Source: an uncultured Acidobacteriaceae bacterium (GTDB lineage Bacteria > Acidobacteriota > Terriglobia > Terriglobales > Acidobacteriaceae). From it: DNA of 64,000 nt. Positions 4,835 to 56,122 of this stretch are shown in pieces. Under the pieces are notes generated by a model, which saw nothing but the letters and a program-made list of their open reading frames with translations, did no database searches and was not told where the DNA came from. The DNA is taken from positions 169 through 64,168 of the forward strand of contig CAVYOX010000005.1 in NCBI GenBank assembly GCA_963770245.1, read 5' to 3'. The position numbers were made by a program, and so were the translations under genes. Every line of letters begins with the position of its first letter. Within the stretch, counting starts at the first letter, position 1.

Positions 4835-5712
<878 letters not shown>

Positions 5713-6449: not shown

Positions 6450-6568
6450 AAGAGCCTCCGGTGAAAACTGCTTGGTCTTGCAAGTTGCTGCCAGGCGCCG
6501 GCGGAATCGAAAAGGGGAGGACCGGCGGACGGCCCTCCCATCCGAATGCAGCCCAGGCGCCTCCCTGT

Positions 6569-10320: not shown

Positions 10321-10420
10321 GCGCGCTTCTAGGAATGTGCCAAAGTCGCGTTCCCGACCGGTTCTCAGTTGATTTTTCCGGAAGAATATCTCGACCGGGG
10401 CTGTGGCCTTTAGAAAACTC

Positions 10421-39900: not shown

Positions 39901-40377
39901 ACCGGTTTGCTGCTGGTGCGCGGTCCGAACGTGATGCAGGGCTACCTGAACCGTCCGGAAAAAACCGCGGAAGTCTTGCGCGATGGCTGGTACAACACCC
40001 AGGACATCGCCGCCATGGATGAGGATGGGTTCATCCGCATCACCGACCGCATGAGCCGCTTCAGCAAGATTGGCGGTGAAATGGTGCCCCATATCAAGGT
40101 CGAGGACAAGCTGCAGGAGATATGTGGCCGAACCGAACAGGTTTTCGCGGTTACCGCCCTGCCCGATGAAAAAAAGGGCGAACGCCTCATGGTGGTGCAT
40201 ACCTTGGCTCCGGACCAACTGCAGGAATGCCTGGCTCAGCTGGCCAAATCAGACTTACCGGCGCTGTGGAAACCGCGGCCCGATCAGTTTGTACGCGCGG
40301 AAGCCTTGCCCTATCTGGGCACGGGCAAGCTCGACCTGCGCCGGCTCAAAGAAATCGCGGCGGGAGCCTCGATATGA
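36910..40377 (+). CDS. tri-domain fusion: MFS lysophospholipid transporter (LplT-like), PlsC-type acyltransferase and acyl-ACP/CoA synthetase (Aas-like)
   Basis: About 400 aa of MFS N-terminus. Acyltransferase H(X4)D motif NHVSMVD. AMP-binding motif IFSSGSTGDPKGVVLTH. This matches E. coli lplT plus aas fused into one ORF. Confidence 0.85.
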   Translation: MSESAAATVVEISEKETNQPRAENTPAPAWRRGFGSLVITQFQGAFNENGLKNLVVFLILGMAMQKADRDRLVLVVGTLFSVPFILFSMTGGFLADRYSKRTVTIGTKFFEMAVMLLAIAALGWENLHLEMAAVFLASTQAALFGPAKYGLLPELLPEPKLSWGNGVLELGTFLAVIAGGVSGAFLADIFHAREQWSGLVFLGLSLIGLLFSLGITKVPAADPAKKFRANPIGDLWVQGRLIRKDRVLWLAVLGNTYFWLLAALLTANIVFYGSDVLHISSTRTGILQAAVAIGIGLGSLTAGYLSGGKVEYGLIPLGSVGMTVFGVLLSAPNLSFAAVLWRLAALGFSAGFFAVPVNALIQHRPDEKVKGGVIAAANLLSFVGIGGAAGLYYVFQHYYHFSPPKIFLSVSLLTVLATVYVLYLLPDALLRLLLWIATHTLYRIHLAGRDHVPAKGGALLVSNHVSMVDAVLLLASVDRPIRFLMFQGSYDHPLVKPFAKIMKVIPISSQLRPREMIQSLRTATEALQNGEIVCIFPEGQMTRIGQMLPFRRGMERIMKGVEAPIIPVNLGGVWGSIFSFERGKFLWKLPRRIPYPVTVTFGPAMPPTTGAQAVRQATQELGAEAYQYRKPYMRPLDRSFVETARRHPFRFAMADGHTPKLSFGGALNRTVFLARRLRRVWWDQSMVGILLPPSVGGALVNLAALLMGKIPVNLNYTASNEILASCARQCQLKTVITSRAFLERVPIQPPAQATMLEDLAAAPAWREKLSAALLAWFLPLRLLEKSVGAKRKVKLDDIATVIFSSGSTGDPKGVVLTHYNVAANVEQLNQVFMLGRHDKILGILPFFHSFGFTGTLCLPTSIGMGVVFHPSPLESRAIGALVSQYGVTFLLATPTFLQSYIRRCSPEDFGSLQYVMAGAEKLPERVSVAFEDRFGIRPLEGYGCTECSPAVTVNTRDFRAAQFHQVGAKRASIGHPLPGISVRIVNPETLEPVPPGETGLLLVRGPNVMQGYLNRPEKTAEVLRDGWYNTQDIAAMDEDGFIRITDRMSRFSKIGGEMVPHIKVEDKLQEICGRTEQVFAVTALPDEKKGERLMVVHTLAPDQLQECLAQLAKSDLPALWKPRPDQFVRAEALPYLGTGKLDLRRLKEIAAGASI

Positions 40378-43581: not shown

Positions 43582-44895
43582 TCAGCGGCCGGAGCCGCCT
43601 TCGGCAATCTGCAAATCGAGGGAGACGCGTTCGCCGTTAATCAGCACGGTTCCTTGGTCAACCAACTGCTGGCCGGTGCATTCGTAGTTTGCATAGCAAC
43701 GCAATGCGGAAAACGGAAAGAAGAACTCGACTGCTTCGGAGTTGGCGCTTGCCGCCGCAGTTTTGCCGGCTACGTGAACCGTCGTGCTGAAACCCACACC
43801 GTCGAAGTTCTGCTCCGCTTTTAAGTATTCGAGCGTCGGACGCACCAGATGGGCGATATGCTCATCGAAGGCCAGCGCCGCCAATTTATAACGCGAACCG
43901 TTGGCGGATTGTGGAAGCGAAGAGTTGATGGAAAGCTCCAAGTAGATCGCTTGACGAAACCCGACGAAACTCGGGGGTGCATAGCCGACGAAGTGGGCTT
44001 GTGGGTCCATGCCCTTCATCATCTGGGCGATGATTTCCTGGTCGGAGGTTTCTAGAGAAGCCAGCGCTTGCGGCGAGGTGTCGCGCGGGGGAGGCAGCGG
44101 AACAGCGGTTCCTTGCTGTCTTGGGGCCACCGAGGGCGCGGGCTGAGGCGCACCACCGGGAACGACCGCAGAATCTGCTTGAGGAACCTCTTCCCCATTC
44201 TCCGCGAAGGTCCTTCCCTTTCTTTGCGAGACCTCGCTTGCTGAGCCATCGACTGCCAACCGCCGCCCTTCGTTGGTCAACCAGATGGAAACGGGCTGGG
44301 CGTTCAAGAAAGCCTTCCCCTCAAGCAACGCGGCTTGCTGCACGGTCTCGTTCTTGGAGCCAATCAGTCTTATGGCGGCCTGCTGCGGCAGGAAGACCAT
44401 CAGGTTCTCCGCCCGCTCCATGTCGACGCCCATCACTTTGCCCATGATGTGGTGGGAGACTTCGATCGCGTAGCCTTGAATCTCGCGGTTCGACTGAAAG
44501 CGCGGGACCGCGCCTTTCAGAATGGGCATAACTACGGCGAGAAATGTGGCGCGGGCGCGCTGCTCCTCGCTCATCTTCTGATTCGAGTACGCGGCGTAGT
44601 AGTTTCCTGTAATCGCCAGTACGGTTTGGTCGTTGTAGCTGTCGAAGCGGATGGAGTGTTGGTCTGCGCGCTGCTGTTCCGCCTGATCCAGGTCGAGTTT
44701 GCGGCTGAGATAGAACGGATAGTCGAAGTGACTGGCGAGAATGTCGCGCCCCGCGGATTGCAACTCGTCCATGTACTGCTGCTGCAGGGATCTGAGCTCT
44801 GGATCTTTGATTTCCCACGGACTTTCAACTTGGGCAAGGCATGTGCCGCAAGCCAACAAAAAGAAAGCGAGCCGGAGCGATTTATTTCTGGACAT
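43582..44895 (-). CDS. periplasmic hypothetical protein, last gene of the Rieske/b operon
   Basis: Signal peptide MSRNKSLRLAFFLLACGTCLAQ. Two globular halves joined by a Pro-rich linker. Its start overlaps the upstream gene by 14 nt. Confidence 0.55.
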   Translation of the reverse strand: MSRNKSLRLAFFLLACGTCLAQVESPWEIKDPELRSLQQQYMDELQSAGRDILASHFDYPFYLSRKLDLDQAEQQRADQHSIRFDSYNDQTVLAITGNYYAAYSNQKMSEEQRARATFLAVVMPILKGAVPRFQSNREIQGYAIEVSHHIMGKVMGVDMERAENLMVFLPQQAAIRLIGSKNETVQQAALLEGKAFLNAQPVSIWLTNEGRRLAVDGSASEVSQRKGRTFAENGEEVPQADSAVVPGGAPQPAPSVAPRQQGTAVPLPPPRDTSPQALASLETSDQEIIAQMMKGMDPQAHFVGYAPPSFVGFRQAIYLELSINSSLPQSANGSRYKLAALAFDEHIAHLVRPTLEYLKAEQNFDGVGFSTTVHVAGKTAAASANSEAVEFFFPFSALRCYANYECTGQQLVDQGTVLINGERVSLDLQIAEGGSGR

Positions 44896-45622
44896 ACGTC
44901 ATTCCGGGACCAGGATACGGTGGATCCGAGATCAGTCGGATGTAGGCAATCAGAGCCTGCGTCTCTGTCTTGCTGAGAGTATATCCGTAGGGTGGCATCA
45001 GTGCGGACTTGTTCAAGGACGCGCCGCCGTGGTTGATGACGGCGGTCAGGTCGTTGTCGGTCATCTTATTGAGCGTGTCCCCGTCTGTGAAAGCGTGCGG
45101 CTTGACCTCCAGATTATCGTAATTGGAAACGCGCTCGGGCGTAGATTCCGGGTTATGGCAGCGGACGCAGTACTTTGCGTCGAGCTGTTCGCCCACTTGT
45201 GCTTGATAGCCGAGCGCAATCTCCTCCAGGGTGAGTTCCACTTTTTTCTGTGCCTTGGTCAGGGAGCCGGCCGTGATCTGGTAGCGCCCCGCCATTCCGC
45301 CTAGCCCCACGTTAGTACTGACCTGTCCGCTGGAGTCGGCGAGGCCGCTCGGTGGGTCAAAGCTAACGCCTGGGGGCCCGCTGAATTCCACCAACGCTCC
45401 CGGGACCGCGTTGCCCTGCTCGTCGTTGACCTGGACGACCACGGGCTGGCTGAGCACCGCCCCGGTGGCGCCGATTTGTTTGTTGCCGCTTGATTCAACC
45501 AGAGCCGTGCCGAAAGCGGTCGGTTTTAGATCTGATGGCGAAGCGGATTTCCTGGCGCACCCGGCACTGCCGATGACAACGGCGAGTCCAAATGCCACCG
45601 GAGCCAGCGAACATCTGGTCAT
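44882..45622 (-). CDS. lipoprotein with an Ig-like (Big_1-type) domain and a monohaem cytochrome c domain
   Basis: Lipobox VIGSAGC. LSQPVVVQVNDEQGNAVPGALVEF is invasin/Big-like. CVRCH with a downstream MPPYG Met ligand. Confidence 0.7.
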   Translation of the reverse strand: MTRCSLAPVAFGLAVVIGSAGCARKSASPSDLKPTAFGTALVESSGNKQIGATGAVLSQPVVVQVNDEQGNAVPGALVEFSGPPGVSFDPPSGLADSSGQVSTNVGLGGMAGRYQITAGSLTKAQKKVELTLEEIALGYQAQVGEQLDAKYCVRCHNPESTPERVSNYDNLEVKPHAFTDGDTLNKMTDNDLTAVINHGGASLNKSALMPPYGYTLSKTETQALIAYIRLISDPPYPGPGMTYVQK

Positions 45623-47679
45623 TTCTTCGCCTCCTGCTGGCCGGAGTTTCGTTGCGCCATCAGGAAAGCGGTCAGCGCGCGGGCATCTTCGTCGCTGATA
45701 TTGAAGTTCGGCTCAATGGTTCCCGGCCGGAGAGCTTGCGGGTTCTTCAGCCAGTTATAGATCCAAGCGGCGTTCAGGCGCGAACCCACTTGTGTGAGTG
45801 TCGGCCCAATATAACCCTTGTCGGCCGTCGAATCGACGATGTGGCAAGACTGGCACGCATACTTGGCGTAGAAGAGCTGTTTGCCCTGTTCGACTTGGGC
45901 CGTTGGATAGCCGCTGGCCGGCATGGAGTCGCGGTCGATGGCAGGGGTTTGATAAACCGTCATGATGTAGTCGGTCAGCTCGGTGATGTCGCTGTCGGAG
46001 AGGTTGAACTTGGGCATGCGGCGAATCAGCGACGGCCGCAGCGTGTTGGGATTCTTCAGGAACGCCTGGAGCCATGGCCGCTGCACCGAGCTGCCTTCCC
46101 AACTGAGATCTGGGGCCATGTCACCGCCGCGACCGTTGATGGTGTGGCAACTGAAGCAGGCCAGATCTGCCATGAGCTTTCCGGCTTTGCCTGCGGGCTG
46201 GTAGTCGGAGGTCCGCGGCGCCGGCACGGCCAAGGCGCGCGGCAGGTTCTGGCTTCGATCCGTCAGCGCGAGCAGCGCCGTCGTTAGAGCGTCGATTTGC
46301 GCAGGCGCGAAGCTGAACTGCGGCATCTTCAGTGCCGTCCCGAACGACCGCGGCTGGCGGATCTTGGCGGAAATGTAGTCCGGCAAGGTGTGCGGCATTC
46401 CCGTCAGGAAGATCAGTTGCGTAATCGGCTTGCTGCCGATTCGGGTAAGCTCCGGGGCGAAATTCTCCGGCTTCTTAATCCCGCTGATTTCGTGGCAGGC
46501 GGCACAGCCATACTCTGTAGCCAGAGTCTTGCCATGCGCAATTTGTTCGGGCGTGGCCGCATCCAAATGCACGTTGGCCAACAGATCGGAATCGGTCTTG
46601 CCTTCGAGGTACCGGCTCAGCGATGACAACTGCTGTTCGCTGAAGCGGTAATGCGGCATCGCGGTTTCGGGGTCATAGGTACGGGGATTGCGCAGCCATG
46701 CCTGCAGCCATTCCGGTTTCACTTTGCTGCCCACACGCGTCAGCTCGGGGCCGACATCTCCGCCTACCACATTGCCCGCCGCATTCTGCACCGCGTGACA
46801 GGAGGCGCAGAACGACTCGCCGTATAAACTGGCGGCCGCAGTGGGATCAGGCGGAGCTTTCGACGCCGACGCCGGCAACGTCGCGGTATCTTCCGGCAGA
46901 GGTGTGCTGTTCGCGATCAAGAAAGCGGAAATGTCGCGGGCATCCGGATCGCTCAGCTTGAAATTCGGCATGATGGCAGAAGCGGCATAGGCCTGAGGGT
47001 CCTTCAGCCAGGCATAAATCCATTCCCGCGTGGTCTTGTCGGCGATGTGAGAAAGCGAAGGCGGGTCGTCAGTCGCTTGCATGGTGCCGCCATCGGGCAG
47101 CTTGACCGTGTGACAGCTGACGCAACCATAACGCGCTAACAGAGTCCGCCCCCAGTTGAGCTGGGGCGTACCAGGAACCGCAGCACGGTGGCATTGTCCA
47201 CAAGAAGCTTCCACGTAGCGTGCGGGCAAAATGGGCTGCTCCCACGCCAAAGTGCTGCGATGGGCTTCGGCAACGGTTGTGGCGGCGCCTTGTCCGCGAT
47301 GGCACACTACACAGCCGAATTCATCCAGCTTGTGGGGGATCACAGGATGTCGGCGGAACGGTTGCATACTCACGTCAGCCAGGCTGGCTTCCTTCAATCC
47401 GACGTGACAGGTGGTGCAGCGGTCTACCACACCGAGATCGGGAAGCCAGATTTGCTGAATTCCGCCCTGCAAATGGCGCTGCAGGGTAAGCGCGTCGCCG
47501 CGCCCCCGGATCAAACTCAGGTATTGATCTTGATAATGGCGCCACTCGCTAAAATAGTTCTTGGCCGGAGCAATGGCCAGCGAAAGGAGCAAGAGCAGAC
47601 TGACCACACCAAAGGCACGGACGGGGTCGCCGAACAATGTCCGCCACCCCACGAAAAGCGGGTTCTTCGACGAGTCCAC
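45619..47679 (-). CDS. membrane-anchored octahaem cytochrome c
   Basis: Eight CxxCH motifs: CTTCH, CVVCH, CGQCH, CVSCH, CASCH, CAACH, CFSCH and CQSCH. The last five sit in repeated class-I-like modules (...WL.NP......MP.F.LS...). N-terminal TM helix. GTG start abuts the upstream stop. Confidence 0.85.
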   Translation of the reverse strand: MDSSKNPLFVGWRTLFGDPVRAFGVVSLLLLLSLAIAPAKNYFSEWRHYQDQYLSLIRGRGDALTLQRHLQGGIQQIWLPDLGVVDRCTTCHVGLKEASLADVSMQPFRRHPVIPHKLDEFGCVVCHRGQGAATTVAEAHRSTLAWEQPILPARYVEASCGQCHRAAVPGTPQLNWGRTLLARYGCVSCHTVKLPDGGTMQATDDPPSLSHIADKTTREWIYAWLKDPQAYAASAIMPNFKLSDPDARDISAFLIANSTPLPEDTATLPASASKAPPDPTAAASLYGESFCASCHAVQNAAGNVVGGDVGPELTRVGSKVKPEWLQAWLRNPRTYDPETAMPHYRFSEQQLSSLSRYLEGKTDSDLLANVHLDAATPEQIAHGKTLATEYGCAACHEISGIKKPENFAPELTRIGSKPITQLIFLTGMPHTLPDYISAKIRQPRSFGTALKMPQFSFAPAQIDALTTALLALTDRSQNLPRALAVPAPRTSDYQPAGKAGKLMADLACFSCHTINGRGGDMAPDLSWEGSSVQRPWLQAFLKNPNTLRPSLIRRMPKFNLSDSDITELTDYIMTVYQTPAIDRDSMPASGYPTAQVEQGKQLFYAKYACQSCHIVDSTADKGYIGPTLTQVGSRLNAAWIYNWLKNPQALRPGTIEPNFNISDEDARALTAFLMAQRNSGQQEAKK

Positions 47680-48384
47680 CTAACTCCCCCAAGGCCAAAC
47701 CCAGGACCAGCCTGGGCCACGAAAGAATGTACCAACCGCGGTGAGTACCACCAGCTCGAACAAGAACCACGTCATCACCCAATAGGAAAGCGGCTTGGCT
47801 GCGACATACCGCTGGAAAGCCGAGGGCGACTGCAGCGAACTCTGGCCGGCCATGAACATGAATCCGGTCATGATCAGAGTCGGAGCGAGAGCCACGTAGA
47901 CGTGAAAAAGCAGTAGGAACAAACCGAGCCCCAGCGCGACCCCGTAGAAGATCCGCAGTCGGAACTTGCGATGCTGCAGGAATAAGCCTTCGGCCTCGAT
48001 GTTGATGTTGAAATAGGGGATGACGACCAAAGCGATGACCACCAGGGTAGGAACCAGCACGCCGGCAACCACCGGCGGGAAGTAGTGCAGCATCTCCTGC
48101 AGCCCCAGAAAATACCAGGGCGCTTTGGCGGGATTGGGAGTGTGGGAGGGATCGGCGATACCTTCGAGCGGCGCATTGAACAAAAGAGCAATCACGGCCA
48201 ACACAATCGCCAGCACCTCAATCGCAACCGCCGCCCGGAACAGAACTTCCGGATAAGTCTGGAGCTGCGTCTCGTCCGCGGTTCTTACTTGGGCGGAGGT
48301 GCGTCGGGTGACAAAAGCCACACGCACGGGCGACTTGCGCGCGTCGGAGTCCATGCCGGCGGAAAAATCCTTGGGGTCGCTCAT
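47680..48384 (-). CDS. cytochrome b C-terminal part (subunit IV/PetD-like)
   Basis: [21 protein letters not shown] (PEWYF-type motif). ATGA overlap with the cytochrome b6 gene. Confidence 0.8.
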
Positions 48385-49178
48385 TGCGGATCCTTGGTCG
48401 AGGCTGCTGGAGCAGGCACCGCCATGGCCCCGATCGTCTTGGGCTCGGTCGGGTGGGAGTAAAGCCCACCATCTTTACGAATTCGCCAGAAATGCACCGC
48501 GATCAACAAGGTCGCTGCCAGCGGCAGGATTACGCAGTGCAGCACGTAAAAACGCAGGAGTGCGTTCGCATTCACCTGGTTGCCGCCCAACATCAGGAAG
48601 TGCACTCTGTTGCCGAAAACCGGCACGGCGGAGGCGATGTTCGAGCCGACGGTGATGGCCCAAAACGCCAGCTGATCCCAGGGCAGCAAATATCCCGTGT
48701 AGCTCAAAAGCAGGGTAATGAGCAGCAGAATAACGCCAATGACCCAATTGAATTCGCGGGGCGGGCGGTAGGCGCCGCGGTAAAACACTTTGAACATATG
48801 CGCGAACACCAGCAAGACCATGGCATGCGCTGACCAGCGATGAAGATTGCGCAGAAACAATCCTGAGGAAACGACGAACTGCAGATCTTTGGTATCCGCG
48901 TAGGCTTGCGGGACTGATGGATGGTAATACAGCATCAGCAGAATGCCGGTGATCAGCAGAATCAAGAAGGTCCCGAAGGTCAGCGTTCCCAAGTACCAGG
49001 TGGTGCTAAAGCTGACCATGCGCCTCCGCACCTTGGTCGAAAACAGGTGTAAGAAGATGTTCTGCTGGATCGCGAGGGCGCGATGCAGAGTGCTCGAACC
49101 CGTCCCGCTGCGAAAAACCGAACGCCACACGCGCGCGTTGCGCAATTCGTCGAAATAGTTGCCGATCGTCTTGGCCAT
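48381..49178 (-). CDS. cytochrome b6-type (split cytochrome b, N-terminal part)
   Basis: [18 protein letters not shown].... Haem-ligand His pairs lie in [18 protein letters not shown] and [22 protein letters not shown]. An alternative TTG start at 49184 overlaps the Rieske stop. Confidence 0.85.
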
Positions 49179-49180
49179 GC

Positions 49181-49672
49181 TCAAACCCTCACAAACTGCA
49201 TGGGACGGATATCGGTCGAGCGGTCTACCATCAGATCGCCGTCCTCACTCACCCAGGTCCGCAGCCAGGGCAACGGTCTGGGTGCTGGGCCGGCGATCTT
49301 CTCTCCGTCGCGGTTGAACTTGCTCCCGTGGCAAGGGCAGGCAATGATGCCCAACTCGGGTTTCCATGCCGTCATGCAGCCGAGGTGGGTACAGATGGCG
49401 CTCAGCGCGAAAAAACCTTCCTTGGTACGGATCAGGTAAATCCCCGAGTTCACATCGAGGGTAACGGAATCCTCGGAATAGCCCTCCGGTTTGCCGGCGT
49501 TGACAATGGGGGAAGGCTCGTACAGCACATTGGGAGAGAGAAACTGATAGGCAAACACCGCCGTGCCGGTGGCGGCAATGCTCAACGACCCCAGTCCCAG
49601 CTTCACAAAGAAAGCACGTCGGTCGAATTCTTTGCCGGGGGCCGCGGGCTTGTCTTGTTTCTCCTCGGACAT
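49181..49672 (-). CDS. Rieske 2Fe-2S protein
   Basis: Tat-like RRAFFVKLG. Cluster boxes CTHLGC and CPCHGS. Confidence 0.9.
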
Positions 49673-49674
49673 GC

Positions 49675-51660
49675 TTACCTCGGGCTCGCGCCTGCCAATG
49701 GCGCTGGGTGCCGAAAAGGTCCATCCAACGTTTCGATCGAGATCAGGCCCGTGGGCTCAGCCGGAACCAAGCGGTAAGACTCCATGGTGATCGTGCTCAC
49801 GGGACAACGCGCGGCGCACAACCCGCAACGAATGCAGCGAGTCTCGTCCTTCAGCATCGCGGAACCACTCACCACTCCAAGGTCGTCAGCCTTCACTTCA
49901 TCCAGTTCCACTGCGAACAACTCCTGGTGCTCCCGTATTTGTTGCACCGCCTCGGGATCGAAGGCAATTCGATCCAACGACACCAGTTGCAAACAATTTT
50001 CCGGGCACACATCGACGCAGCCGCCACACAGGATGCACAGGGTGCCATCTTCAGGAGTGCCCTCGAAGACCGTATTCACCCAGCAGTGCAGACAGCGCTG
50101 CGCCTCTTGCATCGCAGTCTCGGCGTCGTAACCGATTTCCACTTCCGTCACCCCGGTGCGGCGCTCGAGCGGCAACATGGGAATCGGCTCACGGGTTAGA
50201 TCGAGCAAGTTCAGCGGCATGCCATAGCGTTTGAGCACATCCACTTCGACGATCGGTTCGGGATGCTTTTCTCCGCGCAGGAATTCATCGATGCCCACCG
50301 CCGCGCGTTTGCCATCGGCCACGCTGTCGATAATCAGGCGCGGCCCAAACACGCAGTCGCCTCCGGCGAAGATGCCATGGGCTGAGGTCATCAGGGTTTG
50401 GGGATTAACGGCGATCAAGCCCCGCGGCGAGAGCTCCACGCCATCTTCGGGTTTTAGGAAGTCCAGTCTCGGCGCCTGGCCGATGGCCATGATGATGGTG
50501 TCGCATTCCAGCTGGGTTTCACTGCCCTCGTAGAACGCCGGATTGAAGCGCTTGTTCTGATCGAACACCCACTTCGTCCTCAGCGCCTCCAGAGCGACAA
50601 CCTTGCCGTCCTGGCCGATCATCCGCTTGGGGCCCAGGCCGGGATGCATGATGATGCCTTCCATCTCCGCTTCCTCGATTTCTTCCAGGGCAGCCGGCAT
50701 TTCCTCGCGCTTTTCCAGGCAGACAAGGTTCACTTCGCTCGCCCCCAGGCGTAGCGCGGAGAGCGAGATATCCACCATTTCTCGAGTGGCAACCGCAGCC
50801 ACGTTCTCTTGCGATGGTTCCAGATCTTCGACTCCGGCAACATGCTGGCGCACCACCTCGCGAGCCGCAGAACGGGCGACATCCATAGCCACGTTCCCGC
50901 CGCCAATCACAATGACCTTCTTGCCGATGGTGAACTTGTAGCCGAGGTTCACGTTCAAGAGGAAATCAATTCCCTTGTAGACTCCGTCTAGATCGACGCC
51001 GGGAATCGTGAGGTCGCGACTGCGATGGGCTCCCACCGCGATCAGCACAGCATCAAAGCCCTGACCGCGCAGATCGGAAATCGCAAAGTCGCGCCCGGCC
51101 GAGTGATTGAGTTTGAGAGTGATGTCTCCGGTCTCGAGAATTTCCCGCACCTGGGCTTCCACGACATCGCGGGGCAAACGATATTCGGGAATGCCGAGAT
51201 AAAGCATTCCACCGGCGACCGGCGCAGCTTCAAAGATTGTGACCGAGTAGCCCATAAGGGCCAAGTCATGAGCCGCCGACAAACCGACGGGCCCGCCTCC
51301 TACAACCGCGATTTTGAATGGAAGTTTGTTCTGAGCGCGCCCGGCATTTACATCAACCGGATGTTTCGACTCGGGGCCATGGCGCTCAGTCAGAAAACGC
51401 TTCAAGGCTCGGATCGCAATGGGCCGGTCGATTTCTCCGCGACGGCATGCGGTCTCGCAAGGATGCGCGCAAACCCGGCCGCAGATACTCGCCAGCGGAT
51501 TGGGATCGCGAGCAAATTTGTAAGCTTCCTCAAAGCGGCCTTCCGCGATCAGCTCCACGTATCGGCCGGCATTGGTATGGGCCGGACAAGCCATCATGCA
51601 AGGGAAGTTGGTGTTGAGCCAATCCCGGTCCACCTTCTTATCTTTGTAGCGTTTCAACAT
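49675..51660 (-). CDS. GltD-like NAD(P)H/FAD oxidoreductase with a C-terminal 2x[4Fe-4S] ferredoxin domain
   Basis: N-terminal Fe-S Cys pattern (CPAHTN...CGRVCAHPCETAC). Dinucleotide folds KIAVVGGGPVGLSAAHDL and KVIVIGGGNVAMDVARSA. CILCGGCVDVCP and CIRCGLCAARCP. Confidence 0.85.
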   Translation of the reverse strand: MLKRYKDKKVDRDWLNTNFPCMMACPAHTNAGRYVELIAEGRFEEAYKFARDPNPLASICGRVCAHPCETACRRGEIDRPIAIRALKRFLTERHGPESKHPVDVNAGRAQNKLPFKIAVVGGGPVGLSAAHDLALMGYSVTIFEAAPVAGGMLYLGIPEYRLPRDVVEAQVREILETGDITLKLNHSAGRDFAISDLRGQGFDAVLIAVGAHRSRDLTIPGVDLDGVYKGIDFLLNVNLGYKFTIGKKVIVIGGGNVAMDVARSAAREVVRQHVAGVEDLEPSQENVAAVATREMVDISLSALRLGASEVNLVCLEKREEMPAALEEIEEAEMEGIIMHPGLGPKRMIGQDGKVVALEALRTKWVFDQNKRFNPAFYEGSETQLECDTIIMAIGQAPRLDFLKPEDGVELSPRGLIAVNPQTLMTSAHGIFAGGDCVFGPRLIIDSVADGKRAAVGIDEFLRGEKHPEPIVEVDVLKRYGMPLNLLDLTREPIPMLPLERRTGVTEVEIGYDAETAMQEAQRCLHCWVNTVFEGTPEDGTLCILCGGCVDVCPENCLQLVSLDRIAFDPEAVQQIREHQELFAVELDEVKADDLGVVSGSAMLKDETRCIRCGLCAARCPVSTITMESYRLVPAEPTGLISIETLDGPFRHPAPLAGASPR

Positions 51661-51733
51661 GATTGGGAAGGATGCGAATCCTGGGCTGAAAAGAATTAAG
51701 GAGCGGAGATGCGCCTTCCCCGCTCCCGGCCTG

Positions 51734-52315
51734 CTATTTGCTTAGCGTGAAGTCCGCCTTGGTGTCGCCCGCAACCGTCACGGGCTTTGACTGGTTCTTT
51801 GCGCCTTCGTGCCACCCGGCTACGGTGTAGCTGCCATCGGGGACGTTCTCGATTTTGTAGTCTCCCGACTTGTCGGTCAGCGCATAGTACGGAGTCGGCG
51901 CCACGACAATGTAGCCAGACATCTCGGGATGCACATTGCACAGCAGCGGAACGGCGCCCGGGTTATCGAACTTGAACGGACGTTTCTGCCCTTGGGGCCA
52001 GGTGCCCAAGTTGTGGCCCAGTTTCTTGTTACCCCCGACGGAAATCCAAAAAACATTGTGGGCGACGCTGTCGCTGTTCAAAAACTCCACCGTCGTTCCT
52101 TGCTGCACCACGACAATGTGGGGCTGGAACATCAGGCCCTTCTGGTCCATGACCGGCTCCTCGGTGGGAGCGGGAAAGGTCTTGCCGGCTACCGCTTCAA
52201 CGTAAACTACCGACTCGCCCGTGACGCCCGACACTTTTCCAGAAATCGTGCCCGCGCTGGCGGCCGCCCCCATCATTGCGACTACTGCCATCACCATCAG
52301 TATCGTAGGTCTCAT
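51734..52315 (-). CDS. periplasmic type-1 copper (cupredoxin) protein with a CarboxypepD_reg-like C-terminal domain
   Basis: Signal peptide MRPTILMVMAVVAMMGAAASA (GGAGG RBS). Cu ligands AHNVF and the amicyanin-type loop CNVHPEM (C-x2-H-x2-M). DKSGDYKIENVPDGSYTV. Confidence 0.7.
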   Translation of the reverse strand: MRPTILMVMAVVAMMGAAASAGTISGKVSGVTGESVVYVEAVAGKTFPAPTEEPVMDQKGLMFQPHIVVVQQGTTVEFLNSDSVAHNVFWISVGGNKKLGHNLGTWPQGQKRPFKFDNPGAVPLLCNVHPEMSGYIVVAPTPYYALTDKSGDYKIENVPDGSYTVAGWHEGAKNQSKPVTVAGDTKADFTLSK

Positions 52316-52362
52316 TCTTGCCTCCATTGTGTCCGCAATCACTTGCGGTTGAATCCTGGTCG

Positions 52363-53940
52363 TTAGTAGGCGAACTCCAAGCCGCCCGTGGCGGTATTTG
52401 TACGGAATAGGTTCACTGCGTTTCCATTCGTGTCGTAGGTGAGGGCCTGCTGCGGCCGGAACGCATACTCAAACGACGCCTTGATGTTGGCGTGGATCAG
52501 GAATTGTACCCCAGGGGTAATCCGGTCGCGCGTGCTCCCCACAGGCGAGTAAAAGTTCAGGCTACCCGCCTGATTCAGAAAATCCGCTGAGGACTGGACG
52601 CGATCCCAACGCAGGATTCCCATCACCCACGGGAGCATGAGATAGTCGGCCTCGAGGAAGCCGCCACTGAACTTGGCTGGGCTGCCGGGAACGAATCCAG
52701 TGAACAGAGGGTTAAACAACGAATCTTGATCGTGGCCATACATGTACAGGCCAAACAGATTGAAGGTGTGGTAGTTGAAACTGAAATCGCCTCCGACACG
52801 ATAGAACGGCTCATGCGCGGTGATCACCGCGGACGTCACCCCGTCCGACGCGAAACCAGAGAAACGCTGCTCTGAACTGCCGTAGAAGGAATACGCGCCC
52901 ACGCTTAAGTATGTATGGTCACGCGGCCCACTCGCGCCGGCCGCCTGGATCGAATTGCGGCTCGCAGCGTCCTTCTCCAGATTAAATCGGTAGGAGACAT
53001 TGGCGTAGAGATCCTTAAAACTGGAGTCTGAGAAAAAGCCAACCCCCGGGGCGCCGATCTGTCCTCCCGTAGGCGAAGGCACATTGGTCGCAGACGAGGA
53101 ACTGCCGCCGCTGGTGTTTTGATCCACGATGGCCAGCGAATAACGATATCCCTTGTAAAGATGGCCTCCACTGAACTCGATTCCGCGGGCGGCATCGCTC
53201 AACGCAAACAAGTTGTTTACCCCCGCTTGCGGGTTCTGTTGATTGGCCACGGCAATGTTGGCCTCGGTGTAAATATCGTATGGGCTGATATTGATCGACC
53301 GAGCTTGCGTAAAAGGCAAGTCGAGTTCGAACTGGCCCACCCTCATGGTCAACGCGTCCGTCGGCAGCTTGAAGAAGCGTCCAATGTTGACGAAGCGCAG
53401 ATAACCGTCACCAAGCCCGCCATTCGCGTTCTCTCCCGCCACGCTAATATCGTCATCCACCCAGAAGGCGATATCGCTCCCAAAATTTCCTGCCATGAAG
53501 ATGCTGAAAAAACCCGGTTCAAAATCGGTGGTCGGAACATTCGGTATTTGCAGCGTCCCCGGGGTCCCTGTAGGCGTCTGGTTGTAGTTGTTGGCGCTGC
53601 CGTTGGTGTACTGGAAAAACTGGTTGAAGCGCAGGCCAATGGGGGGTAGCCCTGGGATGGTCCCCGGAAATATGGTGTGCGGCCACAGCTCTTTCTGCGC
53701 AGGCGCTCCGAGCATTATGGGCGCGAGCTTGATAAACGCGTCATCATCCTTGGGAAACTTGAACCCCGCATCCTTAAAAGCTTTGCCGAAGTCATTCAGT
53801 TTGGGAAAGTCGACATGGCAGGTGCTGCACGAGGTGCCGTATTGACGGGAAAAGGCCGGAATGGCGTGACTATGAGTCGAAAACAACAAGCATGCAAACA
53901 GCTCCAGGAACACAACCGACATGCGATGATGCACTTGCAT
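52363..53940 (-). CDS. outer-membrane beta-barrel-like protein with an N-terminal c-type haem motif (Cyc2-like architecture)
   Basis: Signal peptide ...FSTHSHA|IPAF. A single CSTCH lies about a dozen residues into the mature chain. About 480 aa follow, rich in alternating Gly, aromatic and polar residues. The C-terminus is ...GGLEFAY (aromatic terminal residue typical of OMPs). ggaggagg RBS. Confidence 0.55.
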   Translation of the reverse strand: MQVHHRMSVVFLELFACLLFSTHSHAIPAFSRQYGTSCSTCHVDFPKLNDFGKAFKDAGFKFPKDDDAFIKLAPIMLGAPAQKELWPHTIFPGTIPGLPPIGLRFNQFFQYTNGSANNYNQTPTGTPGTLQIPNVPTTDFEPGFFSIFMAGNFGSDIAFWVDDDISVAGENANGGLGDGYLRFVNIGRFFKLPTDALTMRVGQFELDLPFTQARSINISPYDIYTEANIAVANQQNPQAGVNNLFALSDAARGIEFSGGHLYKGYRYSLAIVDQNTSGGSSSSATNVPSPTGGQIGAPGVGFFSDSSFKDLYANVSYRFNLEKDAASRNSIQAAGASGPRDHTYLSVGAYSFYGSSEQRFSGFASDGVTSAVITAHEPFYRVGGDFSFNYHTFNLFGLYMYGHDQDSLFNPLFTGFVPGSPAKFSGGFLEADYLMLPWVMGILRWDRVQSSADFLNQAGSLNFYSPVGSTRDRITPGVQFLIHANIKASFEYAFRPQQALTYDTNGNAVNLFRTNTATGGLEFAY

Positions 53941-54453: not shown

Positions 54454-55578
54454 ATGCAAACCACGGCGGCCGTCCATTGCCCTAGATGTGGCTATGACGG
54501 CAACAATCCCTACTTCCGCTACTGCGGGATGTGCGGGTTCGCATTGCGCAATGAAGCGCGAACGCGGCCTGCGCCGCCGGTGGCACGCCCGGCCTCTGCG
54601 CTGCCCCCTGCGCTGACGATTGACAGCTATTCCATTCTGGGGTTGCAGGATCAGTCATTCGAGCCGGCGATTCACCCCGAAGACGCTCGTCAACCGCCGC
54701 CTGGCCTTAACGATGCACCGCGGCACCGCGCGGATTACCTTCTCGACGACGATGAGCCGAGCTCACCGCGCTGGCGTATCTATCTGTTAGTGGTTTTGCT
54801 CCTGATCGGTGCCGGGGCGCTGGCTTGGCAGTGGCAAGGATCCGGAAATGCCGCGATGGTTTGGTCGGTGTTATCGCCCGCGAGCCCCCGGGCGAGTCAC
54901 GCCGCGCCGGCGGCTGAGGCCCCGCTCACGGCAGAAGATTCCCCGGCAACCCCGGCCCCGACCCCGGCCGCAGCCCCGACCTCTGAGGCAACTTCGGCGC
55001 CTGCGGCAACCGCCGCGCCGGTGACGGCCGACGCGCAACCTGCGCCCGCGGTTTCCGCGGCGGCGCCACCCACGCCAGTTCCGGACGACCACGCGGCAGC
55101 GCAAGCCCCGTCACCCGAAGGGACCGCCACCGAGGCGGCGCCCGCGCCGAATCAAACCGCCCGGGCGGACCTCGATGCCACGGCCGAGGCGGATTCGAAC
55201 TCTACAAGCTCAACCCAGTCCACTGCCGAAGCTGTTCCGGCCGCGCCCAAGCTCGCCACGTTTTCGGCGGCCGATGCCAACCAACTGTTCGCCGAGGGCC
55301 AGAAATATCTCTACGGCAACGGGGTCGAGCGAGACTGTGGACGCGCCCTCGAGGATCTAAGGATGGCCGCGCGCCTCAACGCAGAAGCCGCCAGCCTACT
55401 GGGCACGATGTACGCCAGCGGACACTGCGTGGGCCAGAACCTGGCCCCTGCCTACCACTGGTATGCCCGGGCCCTGCACCGCGATCCCGCGAACGCCCGC
55501 TACAAAAGTGATCTGGAAGTCTTGTGGAACCAGATGACGCCTCAGCAGAGGCAAGCCGCCCTGCGCATCGCGCCCTGA
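54454..55578 (+). CDS. zinc-ribbon, TM, Ala/Pro-rich linker and Sel1-repeat protein
   Basis: CPRCGYDGNNPYFRYCGMCG. TM WRIYLLVVLLLIGAGALAW. Sel1-like AEGQKYLYGNGVERDCGRA...LGTMYASGHCVGQNLAPAYHWY. Confidence 0.7.
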   Translation: MQTTAAVHCPRCGYDGNNPYFRYCGMCGFALRNEARTRPAPPVARPASALPPALTIDSYSILGLQDQSFEPAIHPEDARQPPPGLNDAPRHRADYLLDDDEPSSPRWRIYLLVVLLLIGAGALAWQWQGSGNAAMVWSVLSPASPRASHAAPAAEAPLTAEDSPATPAPTPAAAPTSEATSAPAATAAPVTADAQPAPAVSAAAPPTPVPDDHAAAQAPSPEGTATEAAPAPNQTARADLDATAEADSNSTSSTQSTAEAVPAAPKLATFSAADANQLFAEGQKYLYGNGVERDCGRALEDLRMAARLNAEAASLLGTMYASGHCVGQNLAPAYHWYARALHRDPANARYKSDLEVLWNQMTPQQRQAALRIAP

Positions 55579-55798: not shown

Positions 55799-56122
55799 CT
55801 ACATGGTCTGGCTTTTCATCATGCTGACGCTGGTAATCGTCATGGTGTCGCCGTCCACGGTTCCTTTCACCTTGATGTGATGCCCTTCATGGCCCTTCAG
55901 AACGTCCTGATTGGCCACCTGGAGTACGCTCTTGTCCTTGTCATTGACAAAGACCAGCGGCGATCCTTCCGACTCGCACTTCTTGACGCAGTCGGCGTCG
56001 ATCTTGCTCGATCCGCACTTGGCATCGCTGACCCATCCGGTCCACGACCCTTTCATTCCCGCAGCCATGGCTCCCGAGCTCACCAGAGTCGAGAGGGTAA
56101 TTGCTAACAGTATTCGCTTCAT
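55799..56122 (-). CDS. small secreted hypothetical protein
   Basis: Signal peptide MKRILLAITLSTLVSSGAMA. Four Cys residues in the mature part. Confidence 0.5.
   Translation of the reverse strand: MKRILLAITLSTLVSSGAMAAGMKGSWTGWVSDAKCGSSKIDADCVKKCESEGSPLVFVNDKDKSVLQVANQDVLKGHEGHHIKVKGTVDGDTMTITSVSMMKSQTM

Follow-up and report, generated by a model that had tools for sequence, protein, structure and literature searches.

A Cyc2-type haem-porin gene next to cupredoxin and anammox-type Rieske/cytochrome b genes in a soil Acidobacterium

Closest described systems

Cyc2, a fused monohaem cytochrome-porin, is the main genetic marker for iron oxidisers in metagenomes, and its function has been verified only in a few Proteobacteria and Leptospirillum. 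It is recognised by a signal peptide, one N-terminal CXXCH, the signature AXPXFAR[Q/K][T/Y], a PXL motif four residues downstream and a length of at least 365 aa (Keffer et al. 2021). The three Cyc2 proteins that have been tested biochemically all oxidise Fe(II), and the function of the divergent Cyc2 clusters is regarded as uncertain, extra functions being possible (Keffer et al.). In FeGenie-based surveys, Acidobacteriota MAGs have already been predicted to be Cyc2 iron oxidisers. Cyc2 of A. ferrooxidans and Mariprofundus ferrooxydans PV-1 and Cyt572 of Leptospirillum (400-530 aa), the link to Cyt572 being suggested by a published network analysis only, share their layout and motif spacing with the protein described here. 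MtrCAB, MtoAB and PioAB are likewise conduits in which a beta-barrel brings c-type haem through the outer membrane so that electrons can be exchanged with the exterior, but they place a separate decahaem cytochrome in a 26-strand barrel, whereas the present protein would have one haem fused to a barrel of about 16 strands.

In A. ferrooxidans, the rus and petI operons encode Cyc2, rusticyanin, cytochromes c4 and an aa3 oxidase together with a bc1 complex and SdrA, and the chain is proposed to run in both directions. The Rieske/cytochrome b (R/b) complexes of anammox bacteria combine a Rieske protein with a four-helix b6-like cytochrome b and an extended subunit IV; cytochrome f is replaced by a cytochrome c with six or eight haems, and an NAD(P) oxidoreductase containing FeS clusters is present on the cytoplasmic side. 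We here describe a locus of a soil Acidobacterium, contained in a 64,000-nt stretch of DNA (the window), in which components resembling those of all these systems are encoded side by side. The new part is this genomic context, that is, the presence of a cupredoxin and an NAD(P)-reductase Rieske/cytochrome b complex beside a Cyc2-type gene.

The fused cytochrome-porin and its relation to Cyc2

A sequence-only reading of the window had described an outer-membrane-type protein at positions 52363-53940 without giving a strand. One ORF was found to fill this span exactly on the minus strand, the plus-strand frame being full of stops. Its features are listed below.

52363..53940, minus strand: Cyc2-type fused monohaem cytochrome c and predicted outer-membrane porin (ORF, 525 aa)
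53866..53940, minus strand: signal peptide, residues 1-25, MQVHHRMSVVFLELFACLLFSTHSH (inspection, alignment and an AF2 helix at 2-20)
53839..53865, minus strand: Cyc2 signature A-I-P-A-F-S-R-Q-Y, residues 26-34 (published form AXPXFAR[Q/K][T/Y])
53815..53829, minus strand: predicted haem c attachment site C38-S-T-C41-H42 (single CxxCH, invariant)
53797..53805, minus strand: P46-K-L48, the PXL motif four residues past the CxxCH (conservation of P46 and L48)
53641..53760, minus strand: subfamily-specific Pro/Lys-rich segment, residues about 61-100 (alignment)
52366..53640, minus strand: beta-barrel porin domain, residues 101-525, with C-terminal L-E-F-A-Y (DSSP strands and Foldseek)

Both strings that the earlier reading had quoted proved exact, with HA followed by IPAFSRQYGTSCSTCHVDFPKLNDFGKAFKDAGF at the start of the mature part and GGLEFAY at the C-terminus. 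The signal peptide that it proposed was also borne out, by eye and by alignment, with an n-region of H4 H5 R6, an h-region at residues 8-21 and S-H-A before the mature start A/I-P-A-F; the cleavage site is approximate, and Ala26 was assigned to the adjoining signature motif. For comparison, we aligned 36 close homologues, 55 diverse relatives (23-62% identity) and a mixed set of 104, and a leader of 25-55 residues was present ahead of A-x-P-x-F in all of the 55 relatives.

The protein has three Cys residues only, namely, C17 in the signal peptide, C38 and C41, and C38-S-T-C41-H42 is its sole CxxCH, in agreement with the claim of a single such motif near the cleavage site. The number of CxxCH motifs expected from the composition of the protein is 4e-4, and the motif was present in 41 of 200,000 shuffles (chance about 2e-4). 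It was invariant in all three alignments, each of the 55 relatives having exactly one, and this invariance across homologues indicates that it is far more than a chance occurrence. The flanking block, which the earlier reading had suggested checking together with CSTCH, was conserved as well: P28, R32, Y34, C38, C41, H42, G52 and G59 were invariant in the 55 relatives, and F30, T36, S37, T40, P46 and L48 were conserved in at least 90% of them.

With respect to the features that define Cyc2, we found the signal peptide (by inspection), the single CxxCH, the PXL motif, a sufficient length and a fused porin. The signature fits the relaxed Cyc2 motif at eight of nine positions, the exception being Ser31 in place of Ala, and its spacing of three residues to the CxxCH is identical to that in Cyc2. 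The protein did not pass the strict screen PXFAR[Q/K][T/Y], as it reads P-A-F-S-R-Q-Y, with a conservative Ala-to-Ser replacement at residue 31. The published tree of 1,593 Cyc2 sequences was built with this screen (Keffer et al. 2021), and both Terriglobia clades have the consensus PAFSR, with Ser in place of Ala, so that they were probably filtered out of the reference phylogeny. Among the 55 relatives, the residues around position 31 read F-A-R in 43, F-S-R in 11 and F-M-R in one, and the strict pattern is a screening heuristic rather than a structural requirement.

To compare the family with Cyc2 directly, we used 89 Cyc2 ORFs obtained by scanning genomes with PxFARQTx3CxxCH, a set hence picked via part of the motif, which came from Acidithiobacillus, Zetaproteobacteria, Sideroxydans, Gallionella and Chlorobiota. 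The family profile matched all 89. In an hhalign comparison with all Cyc2 ORFs, the probability was 99.8% (E 9e-29, 350 columns); it was 99.2% when the Gallionellaceae/Zetaproteobacteria set was used and 98.1% with the Acidithiobacillus set. The porin part alone gave marginal (E 7e-5) or nonsignificant similarity to proteobacterial Cyc2, so that the case for homology comes mostly from the N-terminal 130 residues or so, and BLASTP against Cyc2 of iron-oxidiser lineages likewise gave 27-60% identity mostly over the first 40-150 residues only. As in Cyc2, the cytochrome domain is conserved and the porin poorly conserved. The earlier reading had left open whether the protein belongs to Cyc2 or is an independent fusion, and the hhalign probabilities of 98-99.8% indicate that it is homologous to Cyc2 and not an independent fusion.

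The beta-barrel that had been suggested was also obtained in an AF2 model (pLDDT 68, pTM 0.69), which contains about 16 long antiparallel strands as assigned by DSSP plus short hairpins and resembles 16-strand porins. Foldseek matched it with a probability of 1.0 to Omp38, OprP (2o4v), OmpF, PorB and OprO (4rjw), and OprP and OprO are the templates given for Cyc2 of PV-1 (Keffer et al.). Porins of the OprP/OprO/OmpF type are the closest structural matches of the barrel, with 8-11% identity and moderate TM-scores of 0.51-0.62 (normalised to the target), and they are without a haem domain. No curated family matched the 525-aa protein in Pfam, NCBIfam and PDB sequence searches, and hence no unrelated characterised outer-membrane protein family, which would have argued against the earlier reading, claims it.

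It could be argued that the two Cys and the His form a disulfide or metal site in an otherwise ordinary outer-membrane porin and that the resemblance to Cyc2 is superficial, because haem attachment cannot be shown by sequence, no Pfam or NCBIfam model names the protein and its porin part alone is barely similar to Cyc2. We consider this highly improbable, since the CxxCH and the flanking A-x-P-x-F-A/S-R-K/Q-Y and P-x-L are kept across 55 sequences down to 23% identity, the chance of a CxxCH is as low as given above, the profile homology is to the Cyc2 cytochrome domains and the neighbours described below are all redox proteins. Taken together, the motifs, their invariance, the barrel and the profile homology support the earlier proposal of a Cyc2-like fused monohaem cytochrome-porin, and the protein is very probably a member of the Cyc2 family, in a divergent subfamily, with a presumed Sec signal peptide ahead of a short monohaem cytochrome c domain and the barrel.

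This subfamily, characterised by R-K/Q-Y at the end of the signature (consensus A-I-P-A-F-A-R-K-Y), is large, spans many phyla and has its own 35-aa insert. The insert is the Pro/Lys-rich segment that separates the haem domain from the first strand of the barrel, with the pattern VKxxPVxLGAxAxKxxWPxxxxPGxIPG, in which G78, P87, P92, P96 and P100 are invariant. Its LGA..K..P pattern was found in 39 of the 55 relatives and in none of the 89 proteobacterial Cyc2, from which the insert is absent and from which the protein differs also in Ser31 and R-K/Q-Y; the segment is a gap in the hhalign alignment to Cyc2, and the pLDDT is low there. The subfamily falls into more than 3000 clusters when grouped at 90% identity and into 2029 when grouped at 50%, and its members are all annotated as 'hypothetical protein' from MAGs, none being characterised.

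The downstream gene cluster and its conservation

The haem-porin gene is followed on the same strand by eight genes, as listed below.

51734..52342, minus strand: secreted cupredoxin with a CarboxypepD_reg Ig-like domain, 202 aa (Pfam Copper-bind and CarboxypepD_reg; amicyanin-like)
51699..51727, minus strand: terminator-like hairpin in the 73-bp gap between the cupredoxin and GltD-like genes (11-bp stem with 7 GC, T-rich tail)
49675..51660, minus strand: GltD-like FAD/NAD(P)-binding oxidoreductase, cytoplasmic, 661 aa (Pfam Fer4_20, Pyr_redox_2 and 2x Fer4)
49181..49672, minus strand: Rieske [2Fe-2S] subunit with CTHLGC and CPCHGSKF, 163 aa (Pfam)
48381..49184, minus strand: short b6-type cytochrome b, 267 aa (Pfam Cytochrome_B)
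47680..48384, minus strand: subunit-IV-like C-terminal part of cytochrome b with an APWY Qo motif, 234 aa (Pfam Cytochrom_B_C)
45619..47679, minus strand: membrane-anchored octahaem cytochrome c, 686 aa (Pfam; 8 CxxCH, N-terminal TM segment)
44882..45622, minus strand: lipoprotein-like monohaem cytochrome c with a Big_1 domain, 246 aa (Pfam; one CxxCH, lipobox-like S-A-G-C22)
43582..44895, minus strand: secreted or lipoprotein-like conserved protein, 437 aa, the last gene of the cluster (no Pfam match)

The intergenic gaps from the porin gene onward are 20, 73, 2, -4, -4, 0, -4 and -14 bp, and the Rieske, cytochrome b and subunit IV genes are consecutive with overlapping stop and start codons. 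The cupredoxin, encoded 20 bp downstream of the porin gene, has a type-1 Cu ligand set (H95, C134-N-V-H137-P-E-M140), and this ligand motif was kept in the partner genes of six loci. The GltD-like oxidoreductase has a C-terminal 2x[4Fe-4S] domain and neither a TM segment nor a signal peptide; its score against NF009410 (NAD(P)-binding protein) was 454 bits, under the cutoff of 516. The cytochrome b has four His for two b haems and a single Cys, located in helix D (LHCVILP), and the octahaem cytochrome c has four clustered CxxCH at residues 88-186 plus four class-I-like domains.

When the Rieske protein was compared with the PDB, 9rk4 (Kuste4569, 6e-23) and 9rk3 (Kustd1480, 5e-19) were the top two of 77 matches, ahead of the b6f Rieske proteins. 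In addition, features of the anammox type are present in the large FeS flavoprotein, whose gene ends 2 bp upstream of the Rieske gene, the cytochrome c with eight CxxCH and the split b6-type cytochrome b. The neighbouring genes thus encode a Rieske/cytochrome b complex of the anammox type, NAD(P) oxidoreductase included, and its subunit set matches that described for Kustd1480-1485 and Kuste4569-4574 (cytochrome b subfamily G, Dibrova et al.), the comparison by sequence covering the Rieske subunit only. The Kuenenia complexes are modelled with haem cN, bound at a CxGG in cytochrome b, whereas by sequence inspection this motif is absent from the acidobacterial cytochrome b, where the equivalent position reads Y-L-G-T, so that it has no haem cN site. 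Subunit IV of the anammox complexes has five helices, and the 234-aa protein has at least four hydrophobic segments in a crude hydropathy scan. A further b haem, placed between cytochrome b and the FeS subunit, is also described for the anammox complexes. The anammox complexes also differ in being from planctomycete hosts and in being without an outer-membrane porin-cytochrome and a cupredoxin, both of which are joined to the complex here, in a soil Acidobacterium and with no HAO-like subunit.

The locus follows the same logic as rus and petI of A. ferrooxidans, combining an outer-membrane Cyc2, a blue-copper protein, c cytochromes, a Rieske/cytochrome b complex and an NAD-binding protein. It differs from them in forming one locus with no oxidase in the cluster or the window, in having an amicyanin/plastocyanin-like cupredoxin with an extra Ig-like domain instead of rusticyanin, and in having the split b6-type cytochrome b, the octahaem cytochrome and the large FAD/FeS NAD(P) oxidoreductase instead of cytochrome c1 and SdrA. 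Membership in a rus-operon-type system was rejected because the cupredoxin is not of the rusticyanin type and an oxidase is absent from the cluster and the window; the locus may nevertheless work like rus and petI without being a member.

The same gene order was observed, with different flanks, in the loci of a 78% identical homologue (L001), a 41% identical one (L003) and a 25% identical one (L125), and in a variant (L129), the porin gene and the R/b operon are divergently oriented. The 437-aa protein is at the same position in L001 and L003. The recurrence of this R/b linkage in four or more divergent lineages speaks for a functional unit. Relatives without R/b neighbours were also found (L004, L126, L127 and L128). 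As for the hairpin, it is weaker in L001 and absent in L003, and terminator-like sites overall were no more numerous than in shuffles; it is possibly an attenuator or an RNA stabiliser. It may also uncouple the transcription of the cyc2 and cupredoxin genes from that of the R/b genes, which would speak against one functional wire. On balance, we consider that the porin is probably wired functionally to the neighbouring cupredoxin and Rieske/cytochrome b complex.

Possible direction of electron flow and implications

As the preferred explanation, we propose that the Cyc2-type porin is the outer end of a dedicated high-potential wire, with iron as the presumed substrate and the parts assumed to interact physically. 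Iron outside the cell, dissolved or chelated, would exchange an electron with the one haem of the protein, situated at or within the pore. The next carrier would be the type-1-copper cupredoxin of the periplasm, encoded by the adjacent gene and possibly docked beneath the barrel through its Ig-like CarboxypepD_reg domain. From there, the electron would move through the monohaem lipoprotein cytochrome c to the membrane-anchored octahaem cytochrome c, which would be the c-subunit of the anammox-type complex bearing the FAD/FeS NAD(P) oxidoreductase. The direction we prefer is inward. The protein would then oxidise Fe(II), as characterised Cyc2 proteins do, or some other reduced donor outside the cell, and the Rieske/cytochrome b-NAD(P) module would be the 'uphill' branch by which these electrons are linked with the quinone and NAD(P) pools; in that case, the locus would be a one-locus analogue of the rus and petI operons. 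The proposal as a whole, with the inward direction included, is tentative, and we give it somewhat below even confidence. Against inward flow, no terminal oxidase or carbon-fixation gene was found in the cluster or the 64,000-nt window. It also counts against it that a bifurcating Rieske/cytochrome b-NAD(P) complex running in reverse would consume, not produce, NAD(P)H, and the forward direction, from quinol to a high-potential acceptor, is mechanistically simpler.

With such forward flow, the porin-cytochrome would act in acidic soil or peat as a terminal reductase of Fe(III). Electrons would be passed from menaquinol through the Rieske protein, the octahaem and monohaem cytochromes c and the cupredoxin to the Cyc2-type porin and on to soluble or chelated Fe(III) or humic quinones, and a low-potential electron would be directed via the b haems and the FeS/FAD subunit to NAD(P)+, in a Kartal-type bifurcation as proposed for anammox bacteria. 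Anammox R/b complexes of the same composition are indeed proposed to make NAD(P)H by bifurcation, with Rieske potentials above +300 mV, and the Ser/Phe box of Kustd1480 is common to the Rieske protein of the window. In A. ferrooxidans, quinol has been proposed to feed Fe(III) reduction via bc1, cytochrome c, rusticyanin and finally Cyc2, and the absence of an oxidase from the cluster agrees with outward flow. The organisms point in the same direction: cultured Terriglobia are known Fe(III) reducers and not Fe(II) oxidisers, the lineage of the clade-2 homologues, Ca. Acidoferrum, is proposed as an acidophilic Fe(III) reducer, and Ca. Sulfotelmatobacter, a lineage of MAGs from peat, has one of the homologues. 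This lineage is one of sulfate-reducing anaerobes. However, the three biochemically tested Cyc2 proteins are all Fe(II) oxidases, a lone haem in a narrow porin would reach soluble Fe(III) only, which is scarce above about pH 3 unless chelated, and the benefit of quinol-driven NAD(P)H synthesis to a heterotroph is hard to see. Nothing in the sequence fixes the direction. We regard outward flow as a real possibility, although one well short of even.

It may also be that the porin is a genuine Cyc2-type protein with the cupredoxin as its partner, but that it serves a redox-active solute or surface other than iron. Candidates are humic or quinone compounds, Mn and reduced sulfur species, and electrons might also be exchanged directly with other species or with minerals. 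Alternatively, the adjacency of the R/b genes may reflect a shared periplasmic high-potential pool and no dedicated wire. Keffer et al. allow extra functions of Cyc2 and call for verification of the divergent clusters, and the subfamily occurs in phyla not known for iron oxidation (e.g., Chloroflexota, Bacteroidota, Fidelibacterota and Thermodesulfobacteriota), has a specific 35-aa insert adjoining the haem, and includes several relatives without R/b neighbours. Because the R/b linkage is repeated in at least four divergent lineages, however, we consider this possibility distinctly unlikely.

In its broadest form, the proposed iron wire would be an undescribed self-contained module, widespread in Terriglobia and present also in other lineages, in which the haem-porin and the cupredoxin couple extracellular Fe(II)/Fe(III) to the NAD(P)-reductase Rieske/cytochrome b complex, so that iron drives, or is driven by, NAD(P)(H) turnover through quinol-based bifurcation or confurcation. 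We put this forward as speculation that is rather unlikely to hold in full. The conserved linkage nevertheless provides a testable wiring diagram for electrons of extracellular iron to or from the quinone and NAD(P) pools, in a subfamily whose carriers include Terriglobia, which are dominant in acidic soils and peat. It also bears on the role of Rieske/cytochrome b complexes bearing NAD(P) oxidoreductases, which have so far been discussed almost only for anammox bacteria. If the reading as a module is true, it would give the proposed bifurcation mechanism its first non-anammox physiological context and would represent a new iron-cycling route in bacteria that are among the most abundant in soil. 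Should electrons flow outward, the practice of calling Acidobacteriota iron oxidisers on the basis of Cyc2 in environmental surveys would be wrong in sign.

The porin-cytochrome gene and its relation to Cyc2

The open reading frame at 52363-53940 has exactly the coordinates given in the sequence-only reading but is encoded on the minus strand; read on the plus strand, the frame is full of stops. Its product of 525 aa has the termini quoted there, starting with MQVHHRMSVVFLELFACLLFSTHSHA followed by IPAFSRQYGTSCSTCHVDFPKLNDFGKAFKDAGF and ending in TATGGLEFAY. It contains three cysteines, one in the leader and two in the sole CxxCH (C38-H42), a motif expected 4e-4 times by chance from the composition and found in 41 of 200,000 shuffled sequences. 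The residues around it run in the order A26-I-P-A-F-S-R-Q-Y34, G-T-S, C38-S-T-C-H42, V-D-F and P46-K-L48. Conservation of the haem motif, on which the earlier proposal of a haem-plugged porin depended, was borne out in all 55 full-length relatives (23-62% identity), in every one of which a single CxxCH stands between residues 30 and 59 and has the same flanks; P28, R32, Y34, C38, C41, H42, G52 and G59 are invariant among them. That this is not a haem protein is exceedingly improbable.

Keffer et al define Cyc2 by a signal peptide, a single CXXCH, AXPXFAR[Q/K][T/Y] upstream and PXL four residues downstream, and further by a minimum length of 365 aa and a fused porin of 16 strands that can be modelled on OprP/OprO (PMC8406198). 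All of these features fit the window protein except that Ser31 replaces Ala. The canonical F-A-R is present in 43 of the 55 relatives, and the consensus in both Terriglobia clades is F-S-R; the strict screening pattern used by Keffer et al, PXFAR[Q/K][T/Y] (PMC8406198), requires Ala and would therefore drop the window protein together with both of these clades. As for the porin, an AlphaFold model from a shallow alignment of 36 close homologues was poor (pLDDT 43), and that from an alignment of 104 sequences (26-81% identity) predicted the suspected beta-barrel with a pLDDT of 68 and a pTM of 0.69, most barrel blocks having a pLDDT of 80-90. In the latter model the haem motif is surrounded by short helices, residues 61-96 form a Pro-rich linker of low confidence, and 16 long antiparallel strands, plus short hairpins, extend from residue 101 to 524. 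Foldseek returned 228 matches in the PDB at E ≤ 1e-3, the top ones being the 16-strand porins Omp38, OprP (2o4v), Omp-Pst1, PorB, OmpF and OprO (4rjw), with a probability of 1.0 and a target-normalised TM of 0.51-0.62; OprP and OprO are also the templates reported for Cyc2 PV-1 (PMC8406198). The protein joins a Cyc2 cytochrome domain to a barrel of outer-membrane type, and all structural criteria tested place it in the Cyc2 family, with the exception of one conservative motif substitution.

Sequence searches of Pfam, NCBIfam and the PDB with the window protein gave nothing usable, neither family library yielding a family, and no identical protein was found in the contig index. The window family comprises at least 3029 clusters by word-indexed search, and exhaustive search of 50%-identity representatives found 2029 at E ≤ 1e-3 and 631 at E ≤ 1e-10; the relatives were named 'hypothetical protein' in every case seen. 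Terriglobales MAGs, among them Ca. Sulfotelmatobacter (SPE43965.1 of strain SbA7), are the source of the close relatives (68-96% identity), and a second clade of about 40-46% identity and about 480 aa includes Ca. Acidiferrum (Acidiferrales, also Terriglobia), which is here the acidobacterial NCBI taxon, the name having a later homonym in Ferrovaceae. Relatives of 25-35% identity occur in Chloroflexota, Thermodesulfobacteriota, Bacteroidota/Ignavibacteria, Fidelibacterota and other Acidobacteriota. The ORF at 2638-4215 (+), also of 525 aa, was rejected as a paralogue, being Arg/Ser/Pro-rich and devoid of CxxCH; it starts with TTG, its GC3 equals the bulk GC, it had no family match, and it is probably not a gene.

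The bridge to Cyc2 sequences of iron oxidisers was a scan of species-representative genomes with a degenerate DNA pattern for P-x-F-A-R-Q-T-x3-C-x2-C-H, the other flavour of the published motif, which is unable to match the window's own R-K/Q-Y subfamily. It yielded at least 120 loci with the same spacing of three residues between motif and haem site as in the window protein, from Acidithiobacillus (L011), Zetaproteobacteria/Mariprofundaceae (L014, L022, L026, L035 and L081), Sideroxydans (L040), Gallionella/Gallionellaceae (L045, L064 and L066), Chlorobiota (L080), Ralstonia and many others. For comparison we used the 89 ORFs that were complete, had a length of 365 aa or more and contained a single CxxCH. 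All 89 were matched by the window-family HMM (E 2e-23 to 5e-15 at Z=1e6 for the 31 best-scoring); the significance comes from the cytochrome domain, and the porin segments that align after it are colinear and weak. Profile comparison by hhalign gave a probability of 99.8% (E 8.7e-29, 350 columns, both domains) against all 89, 99.2% (E 9e-20, 127 columns) against 14 Gallionellaceae/Sideroxydans/Zetaproteobacteria ORFs and 98.1% (E 1e-13) against two Acidithiobacillus-type ORFs, scores to which the ten motif residues used to pick the set contribute a part; the alignments reach well past the selected pattern, through P-x-L-N/T-x-F-G-R-x-F-K-x-x-G-Y/F and the first strands. With the porin only, hhalign was marginal against the whole set (62.5%, E 7e-5, 130 columns) and not significant against the Gallionellaceae/Zetaproteobacteria and Acidithiobacillus sets, so that porin homology to these two subsets is not claimed by sequence. 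This weak similarity agrees with the poor conservation of the Cyc2 porin in the literature, accepted members of different clusters sharing 15-30% identity (PMC8406198). Taken together, the HMM and hhalign comparisons uphold the Cyc2-like reading, and the profile homology to Cyc2 of iron-oxidiser lineages settles the choice that the sequence-only reading had left undecided: the window protein is a homologue of Cyc2 and not an independent fusion.

Two short ORFs in Alphaproteobacteria MAGs (93 aa in L018 and 91 aa in L060) have the Cyc2 cytochrome motif TPQFARQTGKSCNFCHAGVPRLNDKGLAFKNSGF, lack a porin part and may be free-standing Cyc2-type cytochrome domains. In a Zetaproteobacteria MAG, a tandem Cyc2 gene pair lies about 3.3 kb apart (L035:13-57 and 3293-3337).

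Judged by its sequence, the window protein belongs to a divergent, uncharacterised Cyc2 subfamily of putative activity, which is marked by R-K/Q-Y-x-T-S-C-x-T-C-H and by a conserved segment of about 35 residues, VKxxPVxLGAxAxKxxWPxxxxPGxIPG, whose LGA..K..P pattern occurs in 39 of 55 subfamily members versus none of the 89 in the proteobacterial set.

Subfamily-specific segment in the window
53641-53760, minus strand: Pro/Lys/Trp-rich segment, residues ~61-100, modelled with low confidence

K71, K83 and W91 are nearly invariant within this segment, which could be the source of the distal haem ligand or a docking site for the cupredoxin. A link of the subfamily to Cyt572, the Leptospirillum counterpart of Cyc2, has been suggested (PMC10654088); Leptospirillum Cyt572 was absent from the best 120 matches of a profile of non-Terriglobia members.

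The gene cluster and its recurrence among relatives

The porin-cytochrome gene heads nine co-directional genes, with successive gaps of 20, 73, 2, -4, -4, 0, -4 and -14 bp.

Genes of the cluster after the porin-cytochrome gene, and a hairpin within it
Gene 2: secreted 202-aa cupredoxin fused to a CarboxypepD_reg Ig-like domain; amicyanin-like ligands H...C-x2-H-x2-M
Gene 3: 661-aa cytoplasmic GltD-like flavoprotein; Fer4_20, FAD/NAD(P) fold, 2x[4Fe-4S]
Genes 4-6: Rieske protein, short b6-type cytochrome b, subunit-IV-like protein
Gene 7: membrane-anchored cytochrome c with eight CxxCH
Gene 8: lipoprotein-like monohaem cytochrome c with a Big_1 domain
Gene 9: 437-aa lipoprotein-like protein of unknown function
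51699-51727, minus strand: terminator-like hairpin in the gap between the cupredoxin and flavoprotein genes; 11-bp stem, 7 GC, T-rich tail

The composition of the complex, with a Rieske protein, b6, an extended subunit IV, a multihaem cytochrome c and an NAD(P) oxidoreductase, is that of the anammox complexes Kustd1480-85 and Kuste4569-74, and Dibrova's cytochrome b subfamily G has the same subunits. The two best PDB relatives of the window Rieske protein are those of Kuenenia, 9rk4 (Kuste4569, 6e-23) and 9rk3 (Kustd1480, 5e-19), all b6f and bc1 Rieske proteins ranking below them. Its box II is C-P-C-H-G-S-K-F, and since it has the Ser/Phe pair of Kustd1480, which titrates at +335 mV, we infer a high-potential centre. 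Unlike the anammox complexes, the window cytochrome b is without the CxGG haem-cN site.

The arrangement recurs in relatives. In L001 and L002 a homologue of 78% identity, and in L003, on a 1.4-Mb contig, one of 41% identity, is followed by the same nine genes between unrelated flanks. In L125 the porin-cytochrome is 25% identical and the same gene order, preceded by a sigma-54 two-component system, continues up to the contig end. In L129 (about 28% identity) the porin gene (9001-10422) is divergent from an adjoining Rieske/cytochrome b operon (1550-8405), which encodes, in order from the porin, a CarboxypepD_reg protein, Rieske protein, ferredoxin, cytochrome b, subunit IV, an 846-aa multihaem cytochrome, a cytochrome c and another CarboxypepD_reg protein; CarboxypepD_reg proteins thus stand at both ends, and a 96-aa 2x[4Fe-4S] ferredoxin replaces the 650-aa NAD(P) flavoprotein. 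In L004, L127 and L128 the cupredoxin/CarboxypepD_reg partner is kept with no Rieske/cytochrome b genes nearby, and L126 has neither nearby. The products of the second gene align throughout, with H-N-V ... L-C-[N/D/R]-[V/L]-H-x-E-M kept in six loci. Because the partner is kept where the Rieske/cytochrome b genes are missing and the Cu ligands are kept in six loci, the conserved core is the Cyc2-cupredoxin pair, and this core is joined to a Rieske/cytochrome b complex in at least four divergent lineages.

The hairpin at 51699-51727, strong in the window, has a weaker counterpart in L001 and none in L003, so that transcriptional coupling of the two halves of the cluster may be modulated in this lineage, the cyc2-cupredoxin pair being expressed differently from the Rieske/cytochrome b genes. 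In three distant relatives, a Cache/HAMP/PAS histidine kinase and a sigma-54 activator lie just upstream of the porin-cytochrome gene (L004:3842-7095, L125:2377-6186 and L128:1054-4304), which suggests that its expression is regulated there; no such pair adjoins the window gene.

Other genes of the window include a divergently oriented one at 54454-55578 (+), whose 374-aa product has a zinc ribbon at its N-terminus, a long low-complexity region rich in Ala and Pro, and a Sel1 repeat at its C-terminus; it is not conserved beside the cluster in L001 or L003. The small secreted protein of 107 aa encoded at 55799-56122 (-) has a stretch rich in Cys, CGSSKIDADCVKKC, and a segment rich in His, HEGHH; it had no credible family match and may be a metal-binding periplasmic protein. 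Unlinked to the cluster is a DHOR-family di-haem oxidoreductase or peroxidase-like periplasmic protein at 10421-11737 (-; PF06537, 1e-30). A 1155-aa MFS/acyltransferase/AMP-binding fusion at 36910-40377 (+), an Aas-like lysophospholipid transporter and acyltransferase, adjoins a 1421-aa DUF2339 membrane protein at 32444-36709 (-).

Direction of electron flow

All components for an electron path from the cell surface to the cytoplasmic NAD(P) side are present in the locus. Electrons would pass from the cell surface through Cu and the c haems to the Rieske/cytochrome b complex, with the NAD(P)-binding FeS flavoprotein as the putative cytoplasmic-side end of the path. We infer that the parts form one wire with iron as its partner, and likewise the direction of its flow. 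A substrate other than iron, or mere shared-pool adjacency to the Rieske/cytochrome b genes, is quite unlikely.

Oxidation of Fe(II), with electrons flowing into the cell, comes close to an even chance. It is favoured because each of the three characterised Cyc2 proteins is an Fe(II) oxidase (PMC8406198), because a soluble ion is a fitting partner for a single haem that is buried, because the locus mirrors the rus plus petI operons of Acidithiobacillus ferrooxidans, in which bc1 runs uphill towards NAD(P), and because Acidobacteriota MAGs are already listed among the Cyc2 iron oxidisers in FeGenie surveys. The reverse, an outward flow to reduce Fe(III) or humics, is a possible but more doubtful reading. 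The mechanism that has been put forward for such complexes is quinol oxidation in the forward sense, with bifurcation between NAD(P)+ and an acceptor of high potential, and its strict reversal would consume NAD(P)H; furthermore, it has been proposed that Fe(III) respiration in A. ferrooxidans uses a path leading from quinol by way of bc1, cytochrome c and rusticyanin to Cyc2. Terriglobia in culture are Fe(III) reducers, Ca. Acidoferrum is named after predicted Fe(III) reduction, and there is no oxidase or CO2-fixation gene within the cluster or the 64-kb window.

Cyc2 homologues in Acidobacteriota have already been reported. Within a literature coverage that was incomplete, so that absence is not proof, we found neither work on Cyc2 with Terriglobales or Sulfotelmatobacter nor a published description of the window gene cluster, and with the same coverage could not find a prior description of the R-K/Q-Y subfamily with its insert, of its near-universal cupredoxin-Ig partner, or of the deep, recurrent linkage to an anammox-type Rieske/cytochrome b complex and NAD(P) oxidoreductase. 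That abundant soil bacteria have an iron-coupled NAD(P) module working by bifurcation or confurcation is a reading that we regard as somewhat unlikely; if true, it would be of high interest.
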